This document shows, piece by piece, positions 2,973 through 57,296 of a stretch of 64,000 nucleotides of DNA. A program made the translations under genes and the position numbers. The number at the start of each line of letters is the position of its first letter. Position 1 is the stretch's first letter. Under the pieces are notes generated by a model that saw only the letters and a list, made by a program, of their open reading frames with translations, did not search any database and was not told the origin of the DNA. This stretch comes from an uncultured Pelagibacteraceae bacterium (GTDB lineage Bacteria; Pseudomonadota; Alphaproteobacteria; Pelagibacterales; Pelagibacteraceae), in the NCBI GenBank assembly GCA_902571015.1, contig CACGAC010000006.1, positions 3,941 to 67,940 of the forward strand, given 5' to 3'.

Positions 2973-4265
2973 ATGATTAAAAGATACTCTCGAAAAGAAT
3001 TAACAGATATTTGGTCTGAGGAAAATAAATACAAAATATGGTTGGATGTTGAAATTGCTGCAGCTCAAGCAATGGAAAAACTTGGTCAAATTCCAAAAGG
3101 TGTCTCGTCAATAGTTAGGAAAAAAGCTAAAATAAATGTAAAAAGAATTCATCAAATTGAAAGTAAAGTTAAACATGATGTAATTGCTTTTTTAACTTCC
3201 ATAACAGAAAAGGCAGGAATTAAAGCTAGATACCTCCATCTTGGCATGACTTCATCTGATGTAGTAGATACAAGTTTTAATATTCAATTAGTTCAATCAG
3301 GAAAAATTATCTTAAAAGACATAGATCAAATTTTAAAAGTATTAAAAAAACAAGCTAGAAAATATAAATTTACTCCTTGCATAGGTCGTAGTCATGGAAT
3401 TCATGCTGAGCCAATAACATTTGGATTAAAATTAGCTTCCTTTTATGAAGAGTTTAAAAGAAATAGAGAAAGATTAGTTTACGCTATAGATCAAATATCA
3501 ACTTGTGCAATTTCTGGAGCTGTTGGAACATTTGCAAATGTAAACCCTAATGTCGAAAAACATGTTGCAAAAAAACTTGGATTAAAAGTTGAACCAATCT
3601 CTACTCAAATAATCCCAAGAGATCGTCATGCATTTTATTTTTCAGTATTAGGAATTATCGCAGGAAGTATAGAAAGAGTGGCTATAGAAATAAGACATTT
3701 ACAAAGATCTGAAGTTTACGAATTACAAGAATATTTTTCTAAAAGTCAAAAGGGTTCATCTGCAATGCCCCATAAAAAAAATCCAATTTTAAGTGAAAAT
3801 TTAACAGGACTAGCTAGAATGGTAAGAAGTTCTGTTGTTCCAGCGCTAGAAAATATTGCACTTTGGCATGAAAGAGATATTTCACATTCAAGCGTAGAGA
3901 GAAATATTGGTCCTGATGCAAATATTACTCTAGACTTTGCACTTGTAAGATTAGCAGGTGTTTTAGATAATATGATTGTTTATCCAAAAAAAATGCTAGA
4001 AAATCTTAATCTTACTAAAGGGCTAATTTTTTCTCAAGAAGTGATGCTAGAACTGACAAAAACTGGTATCACAAGAGAAAAATCCTATAAGTTAGTACAA
4101 GGATATGCAAAAAAATGTTTTGCTGAAAATTTAGATTTGTTTAATGTTATTCAGTCTGACAAGTTAATAATGAGTAAAATTTCAATCAAAAAATTAAAGT
4201 CTATCTTTAATTATTCTAAACACTTTAAAAATGTAAATCTAATATTTAGGCGGGTTTTCAAATAA
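2973..4265 (+). CDS. purB: Adenylosuccinate lyase
   Basis: [28 protein letters not shown]. Confidence 0.97.
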
Positions 4266-23082: not shown

Positions 23083-25013
23083 GATAAACACTCCTCGTAT
23101 TCTGGTTCTTCGTTAGTTTGTTGATTTTTAGATTTATATACATTGGCTGTAATATCAGTTGATTGAGCATTATTGATATTTTCAGCTCTTTGAATTGATT
23201 TTGATCTACAGTAATAAAGGCTTTTCAAACCTTTTTTCCATGCATCAAAATGAATTCTATGTAATTCTTTTTTGTGAACGTCTGCTGGTAAAAACAAATT
23301 GACTGATTGTGCTTGAGAAATAAATGGTGTCCTATCACCACTCAACTCAACAATCCATTTTTGATTTAATTCAAAAGCAGTTTTAAAAACATCTTTTTCT
23401 AAATCAGTTAAAAAATCTAAATGCGAAACTGAACCTTGATTAGTAGTTATTGTTGACCATGTTTCATCATCATTCTTGCCGTGACTTTCCAAAATTTCCT
23501 CAAGATATCTATTTCTTACATTGAAGGATCCTGACAAAGTTTTGTGAGTATAACTGTTAGCTGCAATAGGTTCCACTCCTGGTGATGCGCCTCCGCAGAT
23601 TATTGAAATAGATGCAGTTGGTGCTATTGCGGTCTTATTTGAAAATCTCTCTTTAAAACCATATTCTGCAGCATCTGGACATGCACCTCTTTCTTCAGCT
23701 AAATCTTTTGAGGCTTGGTTTACCTTTTCATGAATATTTTTAAAAATCTTTTTATTCCATGACTTTGCCATAACAGACTCGAGTGGAATTCTTTTTTTCT
23801 GCAAGAAAGAATGGAAACCCATCACTCCTAATCCAACACTTCTTTCTCTCTCAGCAGAGTATTTAGCATCTTTAAATTGCTCAGGGGCTTTGTTAATAAA
23901 ATCAGATAAAACATTATCTAAAAATCTCATTACATCTCCAATCATATCTGGATCATCTTTCCACTCATCATACTTTTCTAAATTTAATGAAGACAAACAA
24001 CAAACAGCTGTTCTATCTCTTCCATCTTTATCGATACCAGTAGGTAAAGTTATTTCACTGCAAAGGTTTGAAGTTTTAACTGTAAGGTTTGCAAGCTTAT
24101 GATGTTGCGGTATTTGTCTATTAACAGTATCGATGTAAATAATGTAAGGTTCGCCTGTTTCAATTCTCGCTGTTAATAATCTAATCCATAAATTTCTTGC
24201 GGATATAGTTTGTTGAATAGTTCCGTCAGCAGGACTCTTTAGCGCCCATTGCTCATCATTTTCTACAGCTCGCATAAATGCATCTGAAACTAAAACACCG
24301 TGGTGTAAATTTAATGCTTTTCTGTTCGGATCACCACCAGTTGGTCTTCTCATTTCCATAAACTCTTCTATTTCAGGATGGTCAATTGGAAGATAACATG
24401 CTGCAGATCCTCTTCTTAATGAACCTTGGCTGATTGCCATAGTTAGTGAGTCCATCACTTTTATAAATGGAATGATCCCAGAAGTTTTTCCAACTTTACC
24501 AATCTTCTCACCTATTGATCTCAAATTTCCCCAATAACTTCCAATACCTCCACCTTTTGCGGCTAACCAAACATTTTCACTCCAAAGATCTAGAATGCCA
24601 CCTAAGCTATCTGATGCTTCATTTAAAAAACATGAAATTGGTAATCCTCTTTTAGTTCCACCATTAGACAAAACAGGTGTAGCTGGCATAAACCAGAGGT
24701 TGCTTATATAATTATAAATTCTTTGTGCATGCAAATTGTCATCTGCATATGTACTAGCTACTCTCGCAAATAAATCTTGAAAAGACTCATTGTGACCAAG
24801 GTATCTGTCTTTTAGAGTTGCCTTACCAAAATCAGTTAGGTTTGCATCTTTTGATCGGTCAATTTTAATTATTATGCCCTTATCATTTTGAAACAGCTCA
24901 GTTTCATTGTTTAGAGAGAATAAATCTGGTCTATTGCTTTTTTGGACTTCTTTAACCTCAGGGCTATATTCAGAGACAGCTTTCTTTAATGCCTGCGATA
25001 GTATTTTATTCAT
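23073..25013 (-). CDS. nrdA: Class Ia ribonucleotide reductase alpha subunit, short form without ATP-cone
   Basis: PATPVLSN, LPISCF, SNLCSEI, TAIAPTASIS, C-terminal CLSC. Confidence 0.96.
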   Translation of the reverse strand: MNKILSQALKKAVSEYSPEVKEVQKSNRPDLFSLNNETELFQNDKGIIIKIDRSKDANLTDFGKATLKDRYLGHNESFQDLFARVASTYADDNLHAQRIYNYISNLWFMPATPVLSNGGTKRGLPISCFLNEASDSLGGILDLWSENVWLAAKGGGIGSYWGNLRSIGEKIGKVGKTSGIIPFIKVMDSLTMAISQGSLRRGSAACYLPIDHPEIEEFMEMRRPTGGDPNRKALNLHHGVLVSDAFMRAVENDEQWALKSPADGTIQQTISARNLWIRLLTARIETGEPYIIYIDTVNRQIPQHHKLANLTVKTSNLCSEITLPTGIDKDGRDRTAVCCLSSLNLEKYDEWKDDPDMIGDVMRFLDNVLSDFINKAPEQFKDAKYSAERERSVGLGVMGFHSFLQKKRIPLESVMAKSWNKKIFKNIHEKVNQASKDLAEERGACPDAAEYGFKERFSNKTAIAPTASISIICGGASPGVEPIAANSYTHKTLSGSFNVRNRYLEEILESHGKNDDETWSTITTNQGSVSHLDFLTDLEKDVFKTAFELNQKWIVELSGDRTPFISQAQSVNLFLPADVHKKELHRIHFDAWKKGLKSLYYCRSKSIQRAENINNAQSTDITANVYKSKNQQTNEEPEYEECLSCQ

Positions 25014-37359: not shown

Positions 37360-37914
37360 ATGCCCATACAAACTCCAATATGTGATTTTGGTCAAAAAGC
37401 TCATGACTTTAAGCTTAAATCAACAGAGGGTAAAATTCTTTCCTTGGCAGATATCAAAGGTGAAAAAGGAACACTTATTATGTTTATCTGTAATCACTGT
37501 CCATATGTTAAAGCAGTAACGAAAGACATTGTTGAAGATTGTAAAAAATTAAAAGATGTCGGTATCAATTCAGTAGCTATTTGCGCTAATGATGCTGAAA
37601 ATTATCCTGAAGACTCATTTGAAAATATGATTAAATTTTCAAAAGAAAACCAATTTGGTTTCCCTTATTTAGTTGATGAAACTCAAGAAATTGCAAAAAC
37701 TTATGATGCAGTGTGTACACCAGATTTTTTTGGTTATAATAAAGATTTGGAACTTCAATATAGAGGAAGAGTGAGAGAACTAAAAAAATTGGTACCGGTA
37801 AGAGATGGGGACAGTGATCTATTAAAAGCAATGATACAAATTGCTGAAACTAATAAAGGACCTGAGAACCAAATTCCTAGTGCTGGATGTGGTATTAAGT
37901 GGAAAACTAATTAA
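37360..37914 (+). CDS. Thioredoxin-fold AhpC/TSA-like protein
   Basis: FICNHCPYV, AVCTPDFF, GCGIKW. Confidence 0.88.
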   Translation: MPIQTPICDFGQKAHDFKLKSTEGKILSLADIKGEKGTLIMFICNHCPYVKAVTKDIVEDCKKLKDVGINSVAICANDAENYPEDSFENMIKFSKENQFGFPYLVDETQEIAKTYDAVCTPDFFGYNKDLELQYRGRVRELKKLVPVRDGDSDLLKAMIQIAETNKGPENQIPSAGCGIKWKTN

Positions 37915-38996
37915 TGTATATTATTGTTACAAGAACTTTTCCACCAGAATTGGGTGGAATGCAAAGTTTGATGTGGGGTTTATCCCGTGAAATGTCCAAA
38001 AATTTTATGATCAAAGTTTTTGCAGATTATTATGAAAATCATAAAAATTTTGATGAACAAGCAAGTTTTTCAATTGAAAGAGTTGGTGGAATAAAATTTT
38101 TAAGAAAAATAAGAAAAGCTCAGCTAATAAATGAATTTATAAAAGAAAATAAAGTTGAAGGTATTATTGCTGATCATTGGAAAAGTTTAGAGTTAATAAA
38201 AACTAATAAAAAAAAATATTGTTTAATCCATGGTAAAGAGATCAACCATCCATTAGGAAGCTCATTAAATAAAAGAGTTACAAAAGTTCTTAATAATGTA
38301 GAGAGAGTAATAGCGAATTCTGCGTACACAAAAAATTTAGCAATTAATAATGGTGTAAAACAAGATAAAGTTATAGTTATAAACCCTGGAGCTGACCCAG
38401 CTAAAATATTGAATAAAAAATCTCTAGAAAAAGTTGAAAGTTTATTAAAAGTGAAAACACCAAGACTAATTACTGTTTCCAGATTTGATAAAAGAAAAAA
38501 TCATGAAAAAATAATTATGGCACTAAGAAATTTAAAACAATTATACCCTGATATTGTTTATATTTGTATTGGTTATGGTGATGAAGAAGAAAATATAAAA
38601 AAATTAGTTGAAGAGTTAGATCTAACCTCACAAGTAATGTTCTTTAAAGACATAAGTACTGATTTAAAAAATGCTTTAGTGGCAAAATCAAATATCTTTG
38701 TCATGCCATCTATAATTCACAAAACCTCCGTAGAGGGTTTTGGAATAGCATATGTTGAAGCTGCACAATATGGAATTCCTTCGATAGGAGGAAAGGATGG
38801 TGGTGCATCAGATGCCATTGACCACGATAGAACTGGATTAATTTGTGACGGTAACAATCTAAATGAAATTTATTCGTCATTAGATTCAATGATTAAAAAT
38901 AAAAGATATATCGAGCTTGGAAAAAATGCTAAAGAGTATGTTTCAAAATTTCAATGGGATAAAACTTTTGAAGAATACAAAAAAATTCTTAATTAA
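37914..38996 (+). CDS. Glycosyltransferase family 4
   Basis: FPPELGG, RFDKRKNH, EGFGIAYVEA. Confidence 0.9.
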   Translation: MYIIVTRTFPPELGGMQSLMWGLSREMSKNFMIKVFADYYENHKNFDEQASFSIERVGGIKFLRKIRKAQLINEFIKENKVEGIIADHWKSLELIKTNKKKYCLIHGKEINHPLGSSLNKRVTKVLNNVERVIANSAYTKNLAINNGVKQDKVIVINPGADPAKILNKKSLEKVESLLKVKTPRLITVSRFDKRKNHEKIIMALRNLKQLYPDIVYICIGYGDEEENIKKLVEELDLTSQVMFFKDISTDLKNALVAKSNIFVMPSIIHKTSVEGFGIAYVEAAQYGIPSIGGKDGGASDAIDHDRTGLICDGNNLNEIYSSLDSMIKNKRYIELGKNAKEYVSKFQWDKTFEEYKKILN

Positions 38997-54663: not shown

Positions 54664-54740
54664 TGGTAGCGGGAAGTGGGATCGAACCACTGACCTCGGG
54701 CTTATGAGTCCCGCGCTCTAACCAACTGAGCTACCCCGCC
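54664..54740 (-). tRNA. tRNA-Met(CAT), probably elongator
   Basis: 77 nt: GGCGGGG TA GCTC AGTTGGTTA GAGC G CGGGA CTCATAA GCCCG AGGTC AGTGG TTCGATC CCACT TCCCGCT A CCA. It lacks the initiator C1:A72 pair; CCA is encoded. Confidence 0.93.
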
Positions 54741-54831: not shown

Positions 54832-55041
54832 TTAGCTAAAAACTATAAGCCCAAATAAAATTAAACCCGTCGAGGCTGCAGCAGAAAAATAAAACTTTTT
54901 TCTAATCTCTTGTTTCTTGTCAGATTTTACTCTGTTTAAAAGAACATTTATATCTGTACCTCTAGAAGTAGTTTGTGGAGTGTGAGAAACTGTATATTTT
55001 GAAGTAAGTTTTTGTTTAAGAGTGTCAGTTAGATTTTTCAT
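54832..55041 (-). CDS. Small hypothetical protein with C-terminal TM helix (DINVL family, copy 2)
   Basis: 69 aa from ATG 55041; aligns with 55083..55313. Confidence 0.75.
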   Translation of the reverse strand: MKNLTDTLKQKLTSKYTVSHTPQTTSRGTDINVLLNRVKSDKKQEIRKKFYFSAAASTGLILFGLIVFS

Positions 55042-55082
55042 TTGTGTAATTAACCATCCTTTGGATTTATTAGCAAATAAAA

Positions 55083-55313
55083 TTATAAAGAGAGAAATAT
55101 TCCAATTGATCCTAATAGAAGAACACAAAATGAAAAAATAAAAATATTTTTCCTAAACTCTTTGCCTTGCTCAGCATCTAATTTTGATTTTAAAACATTT
55201 ATATCAACTCTACCGGAGCTAATTTTATTAGGATTTAAAGGCTTTTCAGCTACATTAATATCATTTGGGGTCTCGATATTATTAGTATTCTCTGTAAAGC
55301 CTTTAGATGTCAT
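55083..55313 (-). CDS. Small hypothetical protein with C-terminal TM helix (DINVL family, copy 1)
   Basis: 76 aa; DINVL..E.RK followed by a 21-aa hydrophobic tail. Confidence 0.75.
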   Translation of the reverse strand: MTSKGFTENTNNIETPNDINVAEKPLNPNKISSGRVDINVLKSKLDAEQGKEFRKNIFIFSFCVLLLGSIGIFLSL

Positions 55314-55366
55314 AAATCTATTAAACCATAATATTTAAAAAAAACAATTTTCTTGGAAGTTCAAAC

Positions 55367-55404
55367 TGGGTCAATAATGAATTGACACATGTCCAATTTG
55401 GGTC
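55367..55404. promoter_or_regulatory. Candidate operator region between divergent genes
   Basis: Inverted repeat GTCAAT-N5-ATTGAC (55370-86) containing TTGACA; TGGGTC repeated at 55367 and 55399. Confidence 0.4.
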
Positions 55405-56444: not shown

Positions 56445-57296
56445 ATGGGTATAGTAACAACAATAGCGCCGTTTGCGCTAGCTCTTATAATGTTAGGGCT
56501 TGGGGCGTCATTAACAGTAAAAGATTTCACAAGAGTATTTCAGCATCCAAAAGAATTTTTTGTTGGTTTAATTTGTCAATTAGTTGTTCTTCCAATTATT
56601 GGTTATCTGTTAATAATTATTTTAAAAACTCCAATAGAGCTAGCTTTAGGGGTAATGTTGATTGCAGCTGCACCTGGTGGAGTAACATCAAATGTGCTTA
56701 CTAAATTTGCAGATGGAGATGTTGCACTTTCTATATCTCTTACAGCTTTTACTAGTTTAATAAGTATTGTTTCAGTTCCCTATATAGTTTTTTTATCAAT
56801 TGATTTATTTAATATTACTTATGTTGAAAAAGAAGTTTCGATGCTTGGTATATCCTTAAAGATGTTTTTTGTAGTTACTGTGCCTGTGATAATTGGAATG
56901 ATTATTAGAAAATTTTTTAGTGATTTTATAGAAAATAATATCAAAATTATTGAGAAAGCATCCATAGGATTATTTTCAATTGTTTTCATTGCTATCTACA
57001 TTCAAGAATGGGATAGTATTATAATGTTCCTAACGACAGCAGGAACTATTGCTTTGGTTCTTAATATTTCCATGATGGTTATAGGCTTTTACGTAGCTAA
57101 ACTTTTTGCATCAGGTGTTGCTCAACAAAGATGTATATCTATTGAATGTGGATTACAAAATGGAACGTTAGCTGTTTTTGTAGGAACGCAGTTGTTTGGG
57201 CAAAACATGACTTACATGGTTCCAACAGCAGCTTATGCTTTGATTATGATGATGACTTCTGTTCTTTTTGTGTTTTTCTTAAGAAATAGAACTTAA
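56445..57296 (+). CDS. Bile acid:sodium symporter (BASS) family transporter
   Basis: IMLGLG, QLVVLP, APGGVTSN, GDVALS, ECGLQNG. Confidence 0.9.
   Translation: MGIVTTIAPFALALIMLGLGASLTVKDFTRVFQHPKEFFVGLICQLVVLPIIGYLLIIILKTPIELALGVMLIAAAPGGVTSNVLTKFADGDVALSISLTAFTSLISIVSVPYIVFLSIDLFNITYVEKEVSMLGISLKMFFVVTVPVIIGMIIRKFFSDFIENNIKIIEKASIGLFSIVFIAIYIQEWDSIIMFLTTAGTIALVLNISMMVIGFYVAKLFASGVAQQRCISIECGLQNGTLAVFVGTQLFGQNMTYMVPTAAYALIMMMTSVLFVFFLRNRT

Follow-up and report, generated by a model that had tools for sequence, protein, structure and literature searches.

Two very small open reading frames (ORFs) of 76 and 69 amino acids (aa) lie in tandem beside a divergently oriented gene for a regulator with two helix-turn-helix (HTH) domains, in the 1.12-Mb genome of an uncultured Pelagibacteraceae bacterium. 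They raise the question of whether they are genes at all, how they are related to each other and what they might do at this place. Both ORFs were found on the minus strand, as a first-pass annotation made from the sequence had described them, within the 64,000-nucleotide (nt) stretch analysed here (the window; positions 3,941 to 67,940 of contig CACGAC010000006.1, GenBank assembly GCA_902571015.1). We call them micro-genes A and B, and they are the only two copies of their kind in this genome. The explanation that best fits our results, which come from sequence comparison and structure prediction, is that A and B are translated as tail-anchored inner-membrane micro-proteins belonging to two old paralogue lineages. 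In the best reading of their surroundings they would be regulon members and membrane-tethered partners of a module formed by the regulator and a BASS-type sodium symporter, through a mechanism that we infer here.

Coding status, kinship and architecture of the micro-genes

Orthologues of A and B are intact in all 22-23 close relatives compared, with conserved start codons. Stop codons lie a few codons upstream of the ATG in these orthologues and hence fix the ATG starts, so that a 98-aa version of B starting at TTG is unsupported. Pairwise ratios of non-synonymous to synonymous substitution (dN/dS) range from 0.09 to 0.24 for the orthologues of both genes, and the ratio pooled over the whole gene is 0.20 for A and 0.13 for B; purifying selection, on which the first-pass annotation had made its proposal depend, is thus present in both. 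Broken down by region, pooled dN/dS is 0.055 (A) and 0.11 (B) for the helix described below, and 0.16 (A) and 0.06 (B) for the C-terminal tail, the N-termini being the least conserved part of both proteins. Outside an RNA hairpin that overlaps the 5′ part of A, synonymous sites have almost reached saturation with the amino acids retained (dS 0.8-1.4, dN/dS 0.05-0.16). The other five reading frames are closed by stops in all orthologues, bar one antisense frame of A. On this comparative evidence, A and B are real coding genes under purifying selection.

Two local irregularities were recorded. The exceptional antisense frame gives a 58-aa ORF over gene A (window 55162-55338, plus strand), which no more than 14 of the 22 orthologues keep open; we judged it to be a shadow of the A coding frame. 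In genome G008 (L005, C6 ~37845-38021) a frameshift (…KKNIFIFIVADNWCGVLWNL…) removes the transmembrane tail of the A orthologue and leaves B intact; it reflects either a sequencing error or a pseudogene.

The first-pass annotation had aligned the last 40 residues of A and B without gaps, with 21 residues after a common RK and a shared L and G in the tail, all of which is correct. However, only 10 of these 40 residues are identical and BLASTP of A against B returns no alignment, so the pair alone is weak evidence of paralogy. Stronger evidence came from cross-trained hidden Markov models (HMMs). A model built exclusively from B-type and single-type orthologues, containing no A sequence and no sequence from the window, places the window's A second (E=3.3e-5, the next being 0.13) among all 6,884 ORFs in the six frames of the genome, and a model built from A sequences only ranks B second-best (E=0.046). 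This supports A and B as paralogues within a single family. A weakly resolved tree of the core splits it into two lineages: 'LK', with A and those single copies that diverge from the regulator gene, and 'LL/LM', with B, those single copies that converge on the regulator gene and a set of 'type C' copies located after a dimethylglycine-dehydrogenase-like (DMGDH-like) gene. A given genome retains one lineage, the other, or both. Metagenomic proteins include a variant with two DIN helices in tandem ahead of one anchor (P0251) and two A/B chimeras, one joining an A N-terminus to a B C-terminus (P0286) and the other the reverse (P0392); these are the product either of recombination between paralogues or of chimeric assembly.

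A profile of the 44-position core retrieved 1,150 clusters at 50% identity among 1.8 billion proteins (179 of them with E<=1e-10), nearly all of 55-100 aa and with the module at the extreme C-terminus. Single-sequence searches gave 1,738 and 2,777 clusters at 90% identity, all unnamed or 'hypothetical' (for example WP_075482521.1), the labelled ones coming from Candidatus Pelagibacter. The core profile matches 171 of 251 Pelagibacterales genomes. Within Pelagibacter, the genus of the window, 149 of 161 genomes are positive with one to three copies each; the sister genera g8-g10 have a single copy each, and the second family of the order yields marginal matches only. In 300 other alphaproteobacterial genomes only two matches were found, both marginal and not credible. 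Searches of Pfam, NCBIfam, PHROGs, PADLOC and the PDB sequences returned only noise (the best PDB match being Ska3, E=0.35 over 13 residues), and a literature search found no paper mentioning either the family or its locus tags. Our searches therefore bear out the first-pass annotation where it recognised no family and suggested a lineage-specific one: judged by sequence profiles, this is an undescribed family confined to Pelagibacteraceae. Its further suggestion of phage-exclusion factors, like a phage origin, found no support: the 50,697 phage records searched contain no match, nor do IMG/VR, PHROGs and PADLOC.

The proteins share a variable polar N-terminus, the motif [KR]-V-D-I-N-x-L-[LKM]-x-[RK]-[VLI], a K/E-rich stretch leading to an Asn, and a hydrophobic C-terminal tail of 20 residues. 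We analysed this geometry in the 150 top-scoring cluster representatives. The distance from the Asp to the C-terminus is 40 residues in 126 of them and 39 in another 15, and the residue counts given here come from the 126. Counting the Asp as 1, the near-invariant positions are [RK] -1, V 0, D 1, I 2, N 3, L 5, [RK] 8, K 15, E 16, N 20, G 35 and S 39. The last 19 residues contain one charged residue in 2,394 positions; the Gly of the tail is present in 117 of 126 proteins, the Ser in 113 and the Asn just before the tail in 111. The proteins end in S-[LFI] and have neither Pro nor Trp ahead of the tail. AlphaFold2 predicts a single helix that runs without a break from the Asp onwards, covering residues 38-75 of A and 31-68 of B (predicted local distance difference test, pLDDT, 83-94) and preceded by a disordered N-terminus in A and a weak helix at residues 2-16 in B. 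The continuous helix, the basic stretch and the charge-free tail of 20 residues thus agree, at the level of prediction, with the C-terminal anchor proposed for these proteins in the first-pass annotation. As the basic stretch precedes the tail, an N-in, C-out topology is expected for a tail-anchored inner-membrane protein; in this model a stalk rich in Lys and Glu would hold the VDINxL cap at a distance of about 20 residues (roughly 30 Å) from the membrane, with the Asn at the interface and the conserved Gly and Ser close to the outer end of the anchor. Taking dN/dS and the conservation among cluster representatives together, the strongest constraint falls on the cytosolic cap and not on the anchor, which points to a cytosolic partner. 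The stretch D-I-N-x-L-L-x-R bears some likeness to the C-terminal peptide of FtsZ (D-I-P-x-F-L-R), on which none of our conclusions draws.

Linkage to a winged-helix regulator and a BASS transporter

The gene divergent from A encodes a protein with two winged-helix modules (DeoR-like HTH, E=2.5e-6), and is followed by the BASS gene, which is in turn convergent with an 814-aa DMGDH-like gene. No terminator-like site was found between A and B, which are probably co-transcribed. In HIMB5 (our complete relative G013) the regulator, A and B correspond to HIMB5_00003970, _3980 and _3990, all annotated as 'hypothetical'.

A regulator gene adjoins the micro-gene in 44 of 52 loci, and does so in three different gene orders. 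In order I (the window, HIMB5 and others) the micro-gene is divergent from the regulator gene, with the BASS gene following the latter (micro <- -> regulator -> BASS). In order II (G156, G188, G223 and G241) the BASS and regulator genes are divergent, and the regulator gene converges on the micro-gene, itself preceded by DMGDH (<- BASS -> regulator <- micro <- DMGDH), with touching stop codons. In order III (G101 and G087) the BASS gene converges on the regulator gene, from which the micro-gene diverges (BASS -> <- regulator micro ->). Beyond the genus, the regulator gene and the micro-gene are convergent in g9 with no BASS gene nearby, and a BASS gene lies beside both in g8. Among the 161 Pelagibacter genomes, 144 have both micro-gene and regulator, 10 have neither, 5 have the micro-gene only and 2 the regulator only (Fisher p=8e-11, not corrected for phylogeny), and one of the two 'regulator only' genomes in fact carries a divergent micro-gene.

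Two copies of a 14-bp box form a direct repeat 32 bp apart in the spacer between A and the regulator gene, and one box overlaps each of the two putative promoter regions (Table 1). The pattern GTYCAnnnTGGGTY has these two matches only in the 1.12-Mb genome, and the boxes do not vary across alignments in which the regulators share as little as about 30% identity. In order II and in genus g9 a box is still found about 55-70 nt upstream of the micro-gene start, and another upstream of the regulator gene. Across all the gene orders, a box keeps its place ahead of the micro-gene. The box is therefore a good candidate for the regulator's operator, in which case A and B would be co-repressed with the regulator-BASS unit. 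The link to the divergent double-HTH gene, together with the co-occurrence that the first-pass annotation had proposed to look for, is thus sustained by three gene orders, by the distribution of both genes and by a common putative operator.

Several loci depart from the common arrangement. In genome G076 (L096, C1 808000-817000) the regulator gene and both boxes have been cleanly deleted, which makes it a natural 'regulator knockout' strain. In the convergent order (L060, G156:C2 8305-8440; L068, G257:C2) the regulator gene and the micro-gene end with their stop codons in contact or 3 nt apart, and the two transcripts must hence overlap or terminate inside each other. In order III (L064 and L066, in G101 and G087) a second DMGDH-like paralogue, 32% identical, is located within a few kb of the trio of micro-gene, regulator and BASS genes, and the same two genomes carry a box-less 'type C' micro-gene after the main DMGDH-like gene, 24 kb from the trio. 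At the other side of the window's locus, the tRNA-Met(CAT) gene marks the boundary to a glycan gene block and is outside the micro-gene module.

Table 1. Positions of the micro-genes, their protein segments, the RNA hairpin, the boxes and the neighbouring genes in the window
Feature	Position	Strand	Remarks
Micro-gene A, 76 aa, operator-proximal paralogue, 'LK' lineage	55083..55313	-	orthologues intact in 22 close relatives; dN/dS 0.20
Micro-gene B, 69 aa, 'LLNRV' lineage	54832..55041	-	41 nt downstream of A; dN/dS 0.13
A residues 36-56, VDINVLKSKL...KEFRKN, cytosolic juxtamembrane helix (predicted) with invariant cap	55146..55208	-	dN/dS 0.055
A residues 57-76, predicted C-terminal transmembrane tail, conserved Gly and Ser near end	55086..55145	-	pLDDT 87-94
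B residues 29-49, TDINVLLNRVK...EIRKK, cytosolic helix (predicted)	54895..54957	-	AlphaFold2 and dN/dS
B residues 50-69, predicted C-terminal transmembrane tail	54835..54894	-	dN/dS 0.06
RNA hairpin, codons 3-26 of A	55236..55305	-	covariation; first 27 codons involved
Hairpin outer stem, 10 bp: UAAAGGCUUU (Ser-Lys-Gly-Phe codons) with AAAGCCUUUA (Glu-Lys-Pro-Leu codons)		-	
Hairpin inner stem, 7 bp	55274-55280/55257-55263	-	two further pairs between outer and inner stems
Hairpin loop, 10 nt, AGACCCCAAA	55264-55273	-	
Candidate operator box 1, GTTCAAACTGGGTC	55359..55372	+	overlaps promoter-like site facing A
Promoter-like site facing A: TTGACC, 16 nt, GAAAAT	55374-55369, 55352-55347	-	consensus match only
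Candidate operator box 2, GTCCAATTTGGGTC	55391..55404	+	32 bp from box 1
TTGACA of the regulator gene's likely promoter	55382-55387	+	box 2 in spacer after TTGACA; consensus match only
Double winged-helix regulator gene, 325 aa	55427..56404	+	divergent from A, upstream of A
BASS-type sodium symporter gene	56445..57296	+	40 nt after regulator gene; third member of conserved neighbourhood
tRNA-Met(CAT)	54664..54740	-	downstream of B

An RNA hairpin within gene A

Synonymous variation is 0.09-0.17 in codons 1-30 of A, as compared with 0.24-0.50 elsewhere in A and B, and rare GC-ending codons (GGC, AAG, ACC) are fixed in the same region. The RNA of this region can fold into a hairpin with an outer and an inner stem (Table 1). 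In 20 orthologues, 95% of the hairpin cells are paired, compared with 36-56% when the partners are slid; compensatory changes occur in 9 of the hairpin pairs, where shuffled alignments gave 2.2 ± 1.1 and none of 500 reached this number, and the covariation score is 0.206 as against 0.04-0.08 in the slid controls. Genomes matched by a covariance model contain a single copy each, invariably at gene A, which dismisses the possibility of a dispersed motif, and the hairpin is not in Rfam. Its occurrence is limited to one subclade, marked by KGF...EKPL motifs in A; HIMB5 is without it.

The hairpin also changes the interpretation of what had been described as a second DINV in A. The codons in question (GAT ATT AAT GTA) are the 3′ arm of the inner RNA stem, and in orthologues the amino acids at this site vary (DVDV, GFVI, DNVG and others) while the base pairing is kept. 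RNA structures that overlap the coding sequence of a micro-protein can in this way mislead a motif-based reading of such genes. Since the stem begins 8 nt after the AUG, the hairpin may limit or time the translation of A.

The loop (AGACCCCAAA) resembles the box read on the same strand (GACCCAAAT), possibly by coincidence. A third operator box inside gene A (GACCCCAAATGA) was considered and rejected: only 8 of its 11 specified bases fit, and the RNA hairpin loop explains the conservation better. In genome G002 (L007, C14 ~24530-24754) an in-frame TGA interrupts the A orthologue close to the 5′ end; the orthologue restarts at MSETPN and is thus without the 5′ arm of the outer RNA stem.

Possible roles of the micro-proteins

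The mechanism that we propose joins these elements in a feedback loop. The double winged-helix protein would bind the boxes and thereby hold the A-B unit and the regulator-BASS unit in a small local regulon; as one box overlaps each promoter region, both units would switch together. Once made, the micro-proteins would bind the cytosolic regulator through their conserved cytosolic cap, and the regulator would then be held or modulated at the membrane by A and B, closing the loop on the regulator/transporter module. In the lineage of the window, synthesis of A would additionally be tuned by the hairpin. The central step, that is, the capture or modulation of the regulator at the membrane by the VDINxL cap, follows the logic of known systems, and we regard it as a serious possibility that falls somewhat short of being probable.

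Two such systems are instructive. In Bacillus subtilis, the membrane protein SdpI is encoded beside the winged-helix autorepressor SdpR and sequesters this repressor at the membrane (PMC2910880). The locus studied here likewise has an adjacent winged-helix gene with a box in its own promoter region, although the 'auto' part is our inference. SdpI is polytopic (3-12 transmembrane segments) and responds to the SdpC toxin, and SdpR has a single ArsR-type domain, whereas our proteins have one predicted transmembrane segment in 62-76 aa and a duplicated winged-helix regulator, and have no Pfam match. MgrB, a 47-aa membrane peptide of the PhoQ/PhoP regulon (PMC2789325), resembles the predicted micro-proteins in its very small size and its single passage through the membrane, and its gene answers to the regulator of the pathway on which it feeds back, which is the logic proposed here. 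In MgrB, however, the anchor is N-terminal, the functional part is periplasmic and the target is a histidine kinase, while A and B have a predicted C-terminal anchor, conserve a cytosolic segment and adjoin a one-component regulator of the winged-helix type; the A/B family has no Pfam or NCBIfam match above noise that would relate it to MgrB.

Several observations weigh against the capture of the regulator. The main argument is the survival of copies without regulator or box: 5 of the 161 Pelagibacter genomes keep the micro-gene without the regulator; in G076, B and the BASS gene are left as divergent neighbours separated by about 95 nt; and no box precedes the 'type C' copies that follow the DMGDH-like gene. 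As such copies exist, the regulator is not the sole context of the micro-proteins, and the box-less 'type C' copies imply that the micro-protein must have, or must have acquired, a role that is independent of the regulator. In addition, synteny is generally conservative in SAR11, so that adjacency is weaker evidence than it would be in other bacteria. Finally, a Fourier test of per-position conservation revealed no significant conserved helix face or coiled-coil stripe (258-1,149 of 2,000 shuffles as high), and the helix can hence not be called amphipathic, as the first-pass annotation had done.

The same regulator-less and box-less copies, and the near-universal presence of the family in a streamlined genome, favour the alternative that the micro-proteins tether or modulate some other cytosolic machinery, or have a general envelope or stress role, and are merely co-regulated with the transporter. 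The model for this is provided by the DUF883 proteins YqjD, ElaB and YgaM of E. coli, which are C-tail-anchored and bind a cytosolic partner through their cytosolic part (10.1101/2024.08.16.608256; PMC6389858), YqjD-type proteins binding and inactivating ribosomes through the N-terminus (10.1101/2024.08.16.608256). The architecture matches that of our family in the C-tail anchor (predicted here, without signal peptide), the Gly in the anchor, the cytosolic N-terminal part and the presence of several paralogues in one genome (10.1101/2024.08.16.608256). The DUF883 proteins have a helix-breaking Pro followed by Trp just before the transmembrane segment, and a C-terminal RR/RK (10.1101/2024.08.16.608256); here, in contrast, an Asn and an unbroken helix take the place of Pro-Trp, there is no C-terminal Arg-Arg and the protein length is 30-40% less. 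It is the juxtamembrane helix cap that is conserved, whereas the N-terminus, through which YqjD acts, is the least conserved part, and a search with A, B and 20 members of the family gave no DUF883 match even at E<=1 to 10. As this alternative also leaves unexplained the tight linkage to regulator and box, which withstands rearrangement, we hold it to be conceivable but rather doubtful.

A different class of micro-proteins, exemplified by AcrZ, KdpF and MgtS, is co-regulated with and encoded near a transporter, and acts mainly through the membrane helix. By this model A and B would be accessory or regulatory subunits of the neighbouring BASS symporter (in the manner of AcrZ-AcrB, KdpF-KdpABC and MgtS-MgtA), and would be under the regulator's control because they work with the transporter. 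The presence of the BASS gene beside regulator and micro-gene in all three Pelagibacter gene orders and in g8 fits this, as does G076, where the regulator was lost and B and BASS are still divergent neighbours, and the conserved Gly and Ser of the tail are typical of membrane helix packing. Yet the strongest constraint falls on a cap about 20 residues from the membrane instead of on the anchor, and the link to the regulator is deeper than that to the transporter: besides the isolated pair in g9, no BASS gene at all was detected in G257 (a genome that is 92% complete), and conversely G146 and G004 have a BASS gene without micro-gene and without regulator. We consider a role as BASS subunit unlikely.

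Small peptides with a hydrophobic tail that adjoin a tRNA gene and a variable glycan block might also suggest defence, phage exclusion, a type I-like toxin or a holin-like function, but this is very improbable for core, syntenic and near-universal genes with one fixed locus per genome, with purifying selection strongest on a cytosolic motif and with no match in PADLOC, PHROGs, phage genomes or IMG/VR. That the ORFs are untranslated and conserved only as RNA or DNA elements is scarcely credible, since the hairpin constrains only the 5′ third of A at the nucleotide level, whereas outside it amino acids are kept with synonymous sites near saturation, the protein motif is kept across the 1,150 clusters with fully diverged DNA, and the 40-residue distance to the stop codon is fixed.

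Returning to the capture of the regulator at the membrane, its fullest version would be a one-component signalling module private to Pelagibacteraceae, in which a sodium symporter and one or two tail-anchored micro-proteins act together with a duplicated winged-helix repressor that reads asymmetric boxes of 14 bp. The VDIN cap would capture the repressor at the membrane and so couple expression to the status of the transporter or the membrane, and the hairpin of the subclade would add translational control. Taken with all its parts this scheme has a small chance of being right; if true, the most abundant free-living bacteria, which are also the poorest in regulators, would possess a novel type of membrane-sequestration switch.

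SAR11 bacteria are the most abundant heterotrophs in the sea, and are noted for their scarcity of regulators and the near absence of 'spare' genes. In so gene-poor a group, a family retained by about 93% of the Pelagibacter genomes is hence unlikely to be decorative. What our analysis describes is a micro-gene family, often duplicated, that is wired to a lineage-specific regulator and to a transporter next to a DMGDH-like gene. These three small genes and their 14-bp box offer an entry point into the regulation of uptake or catabolism in streamlined cells.
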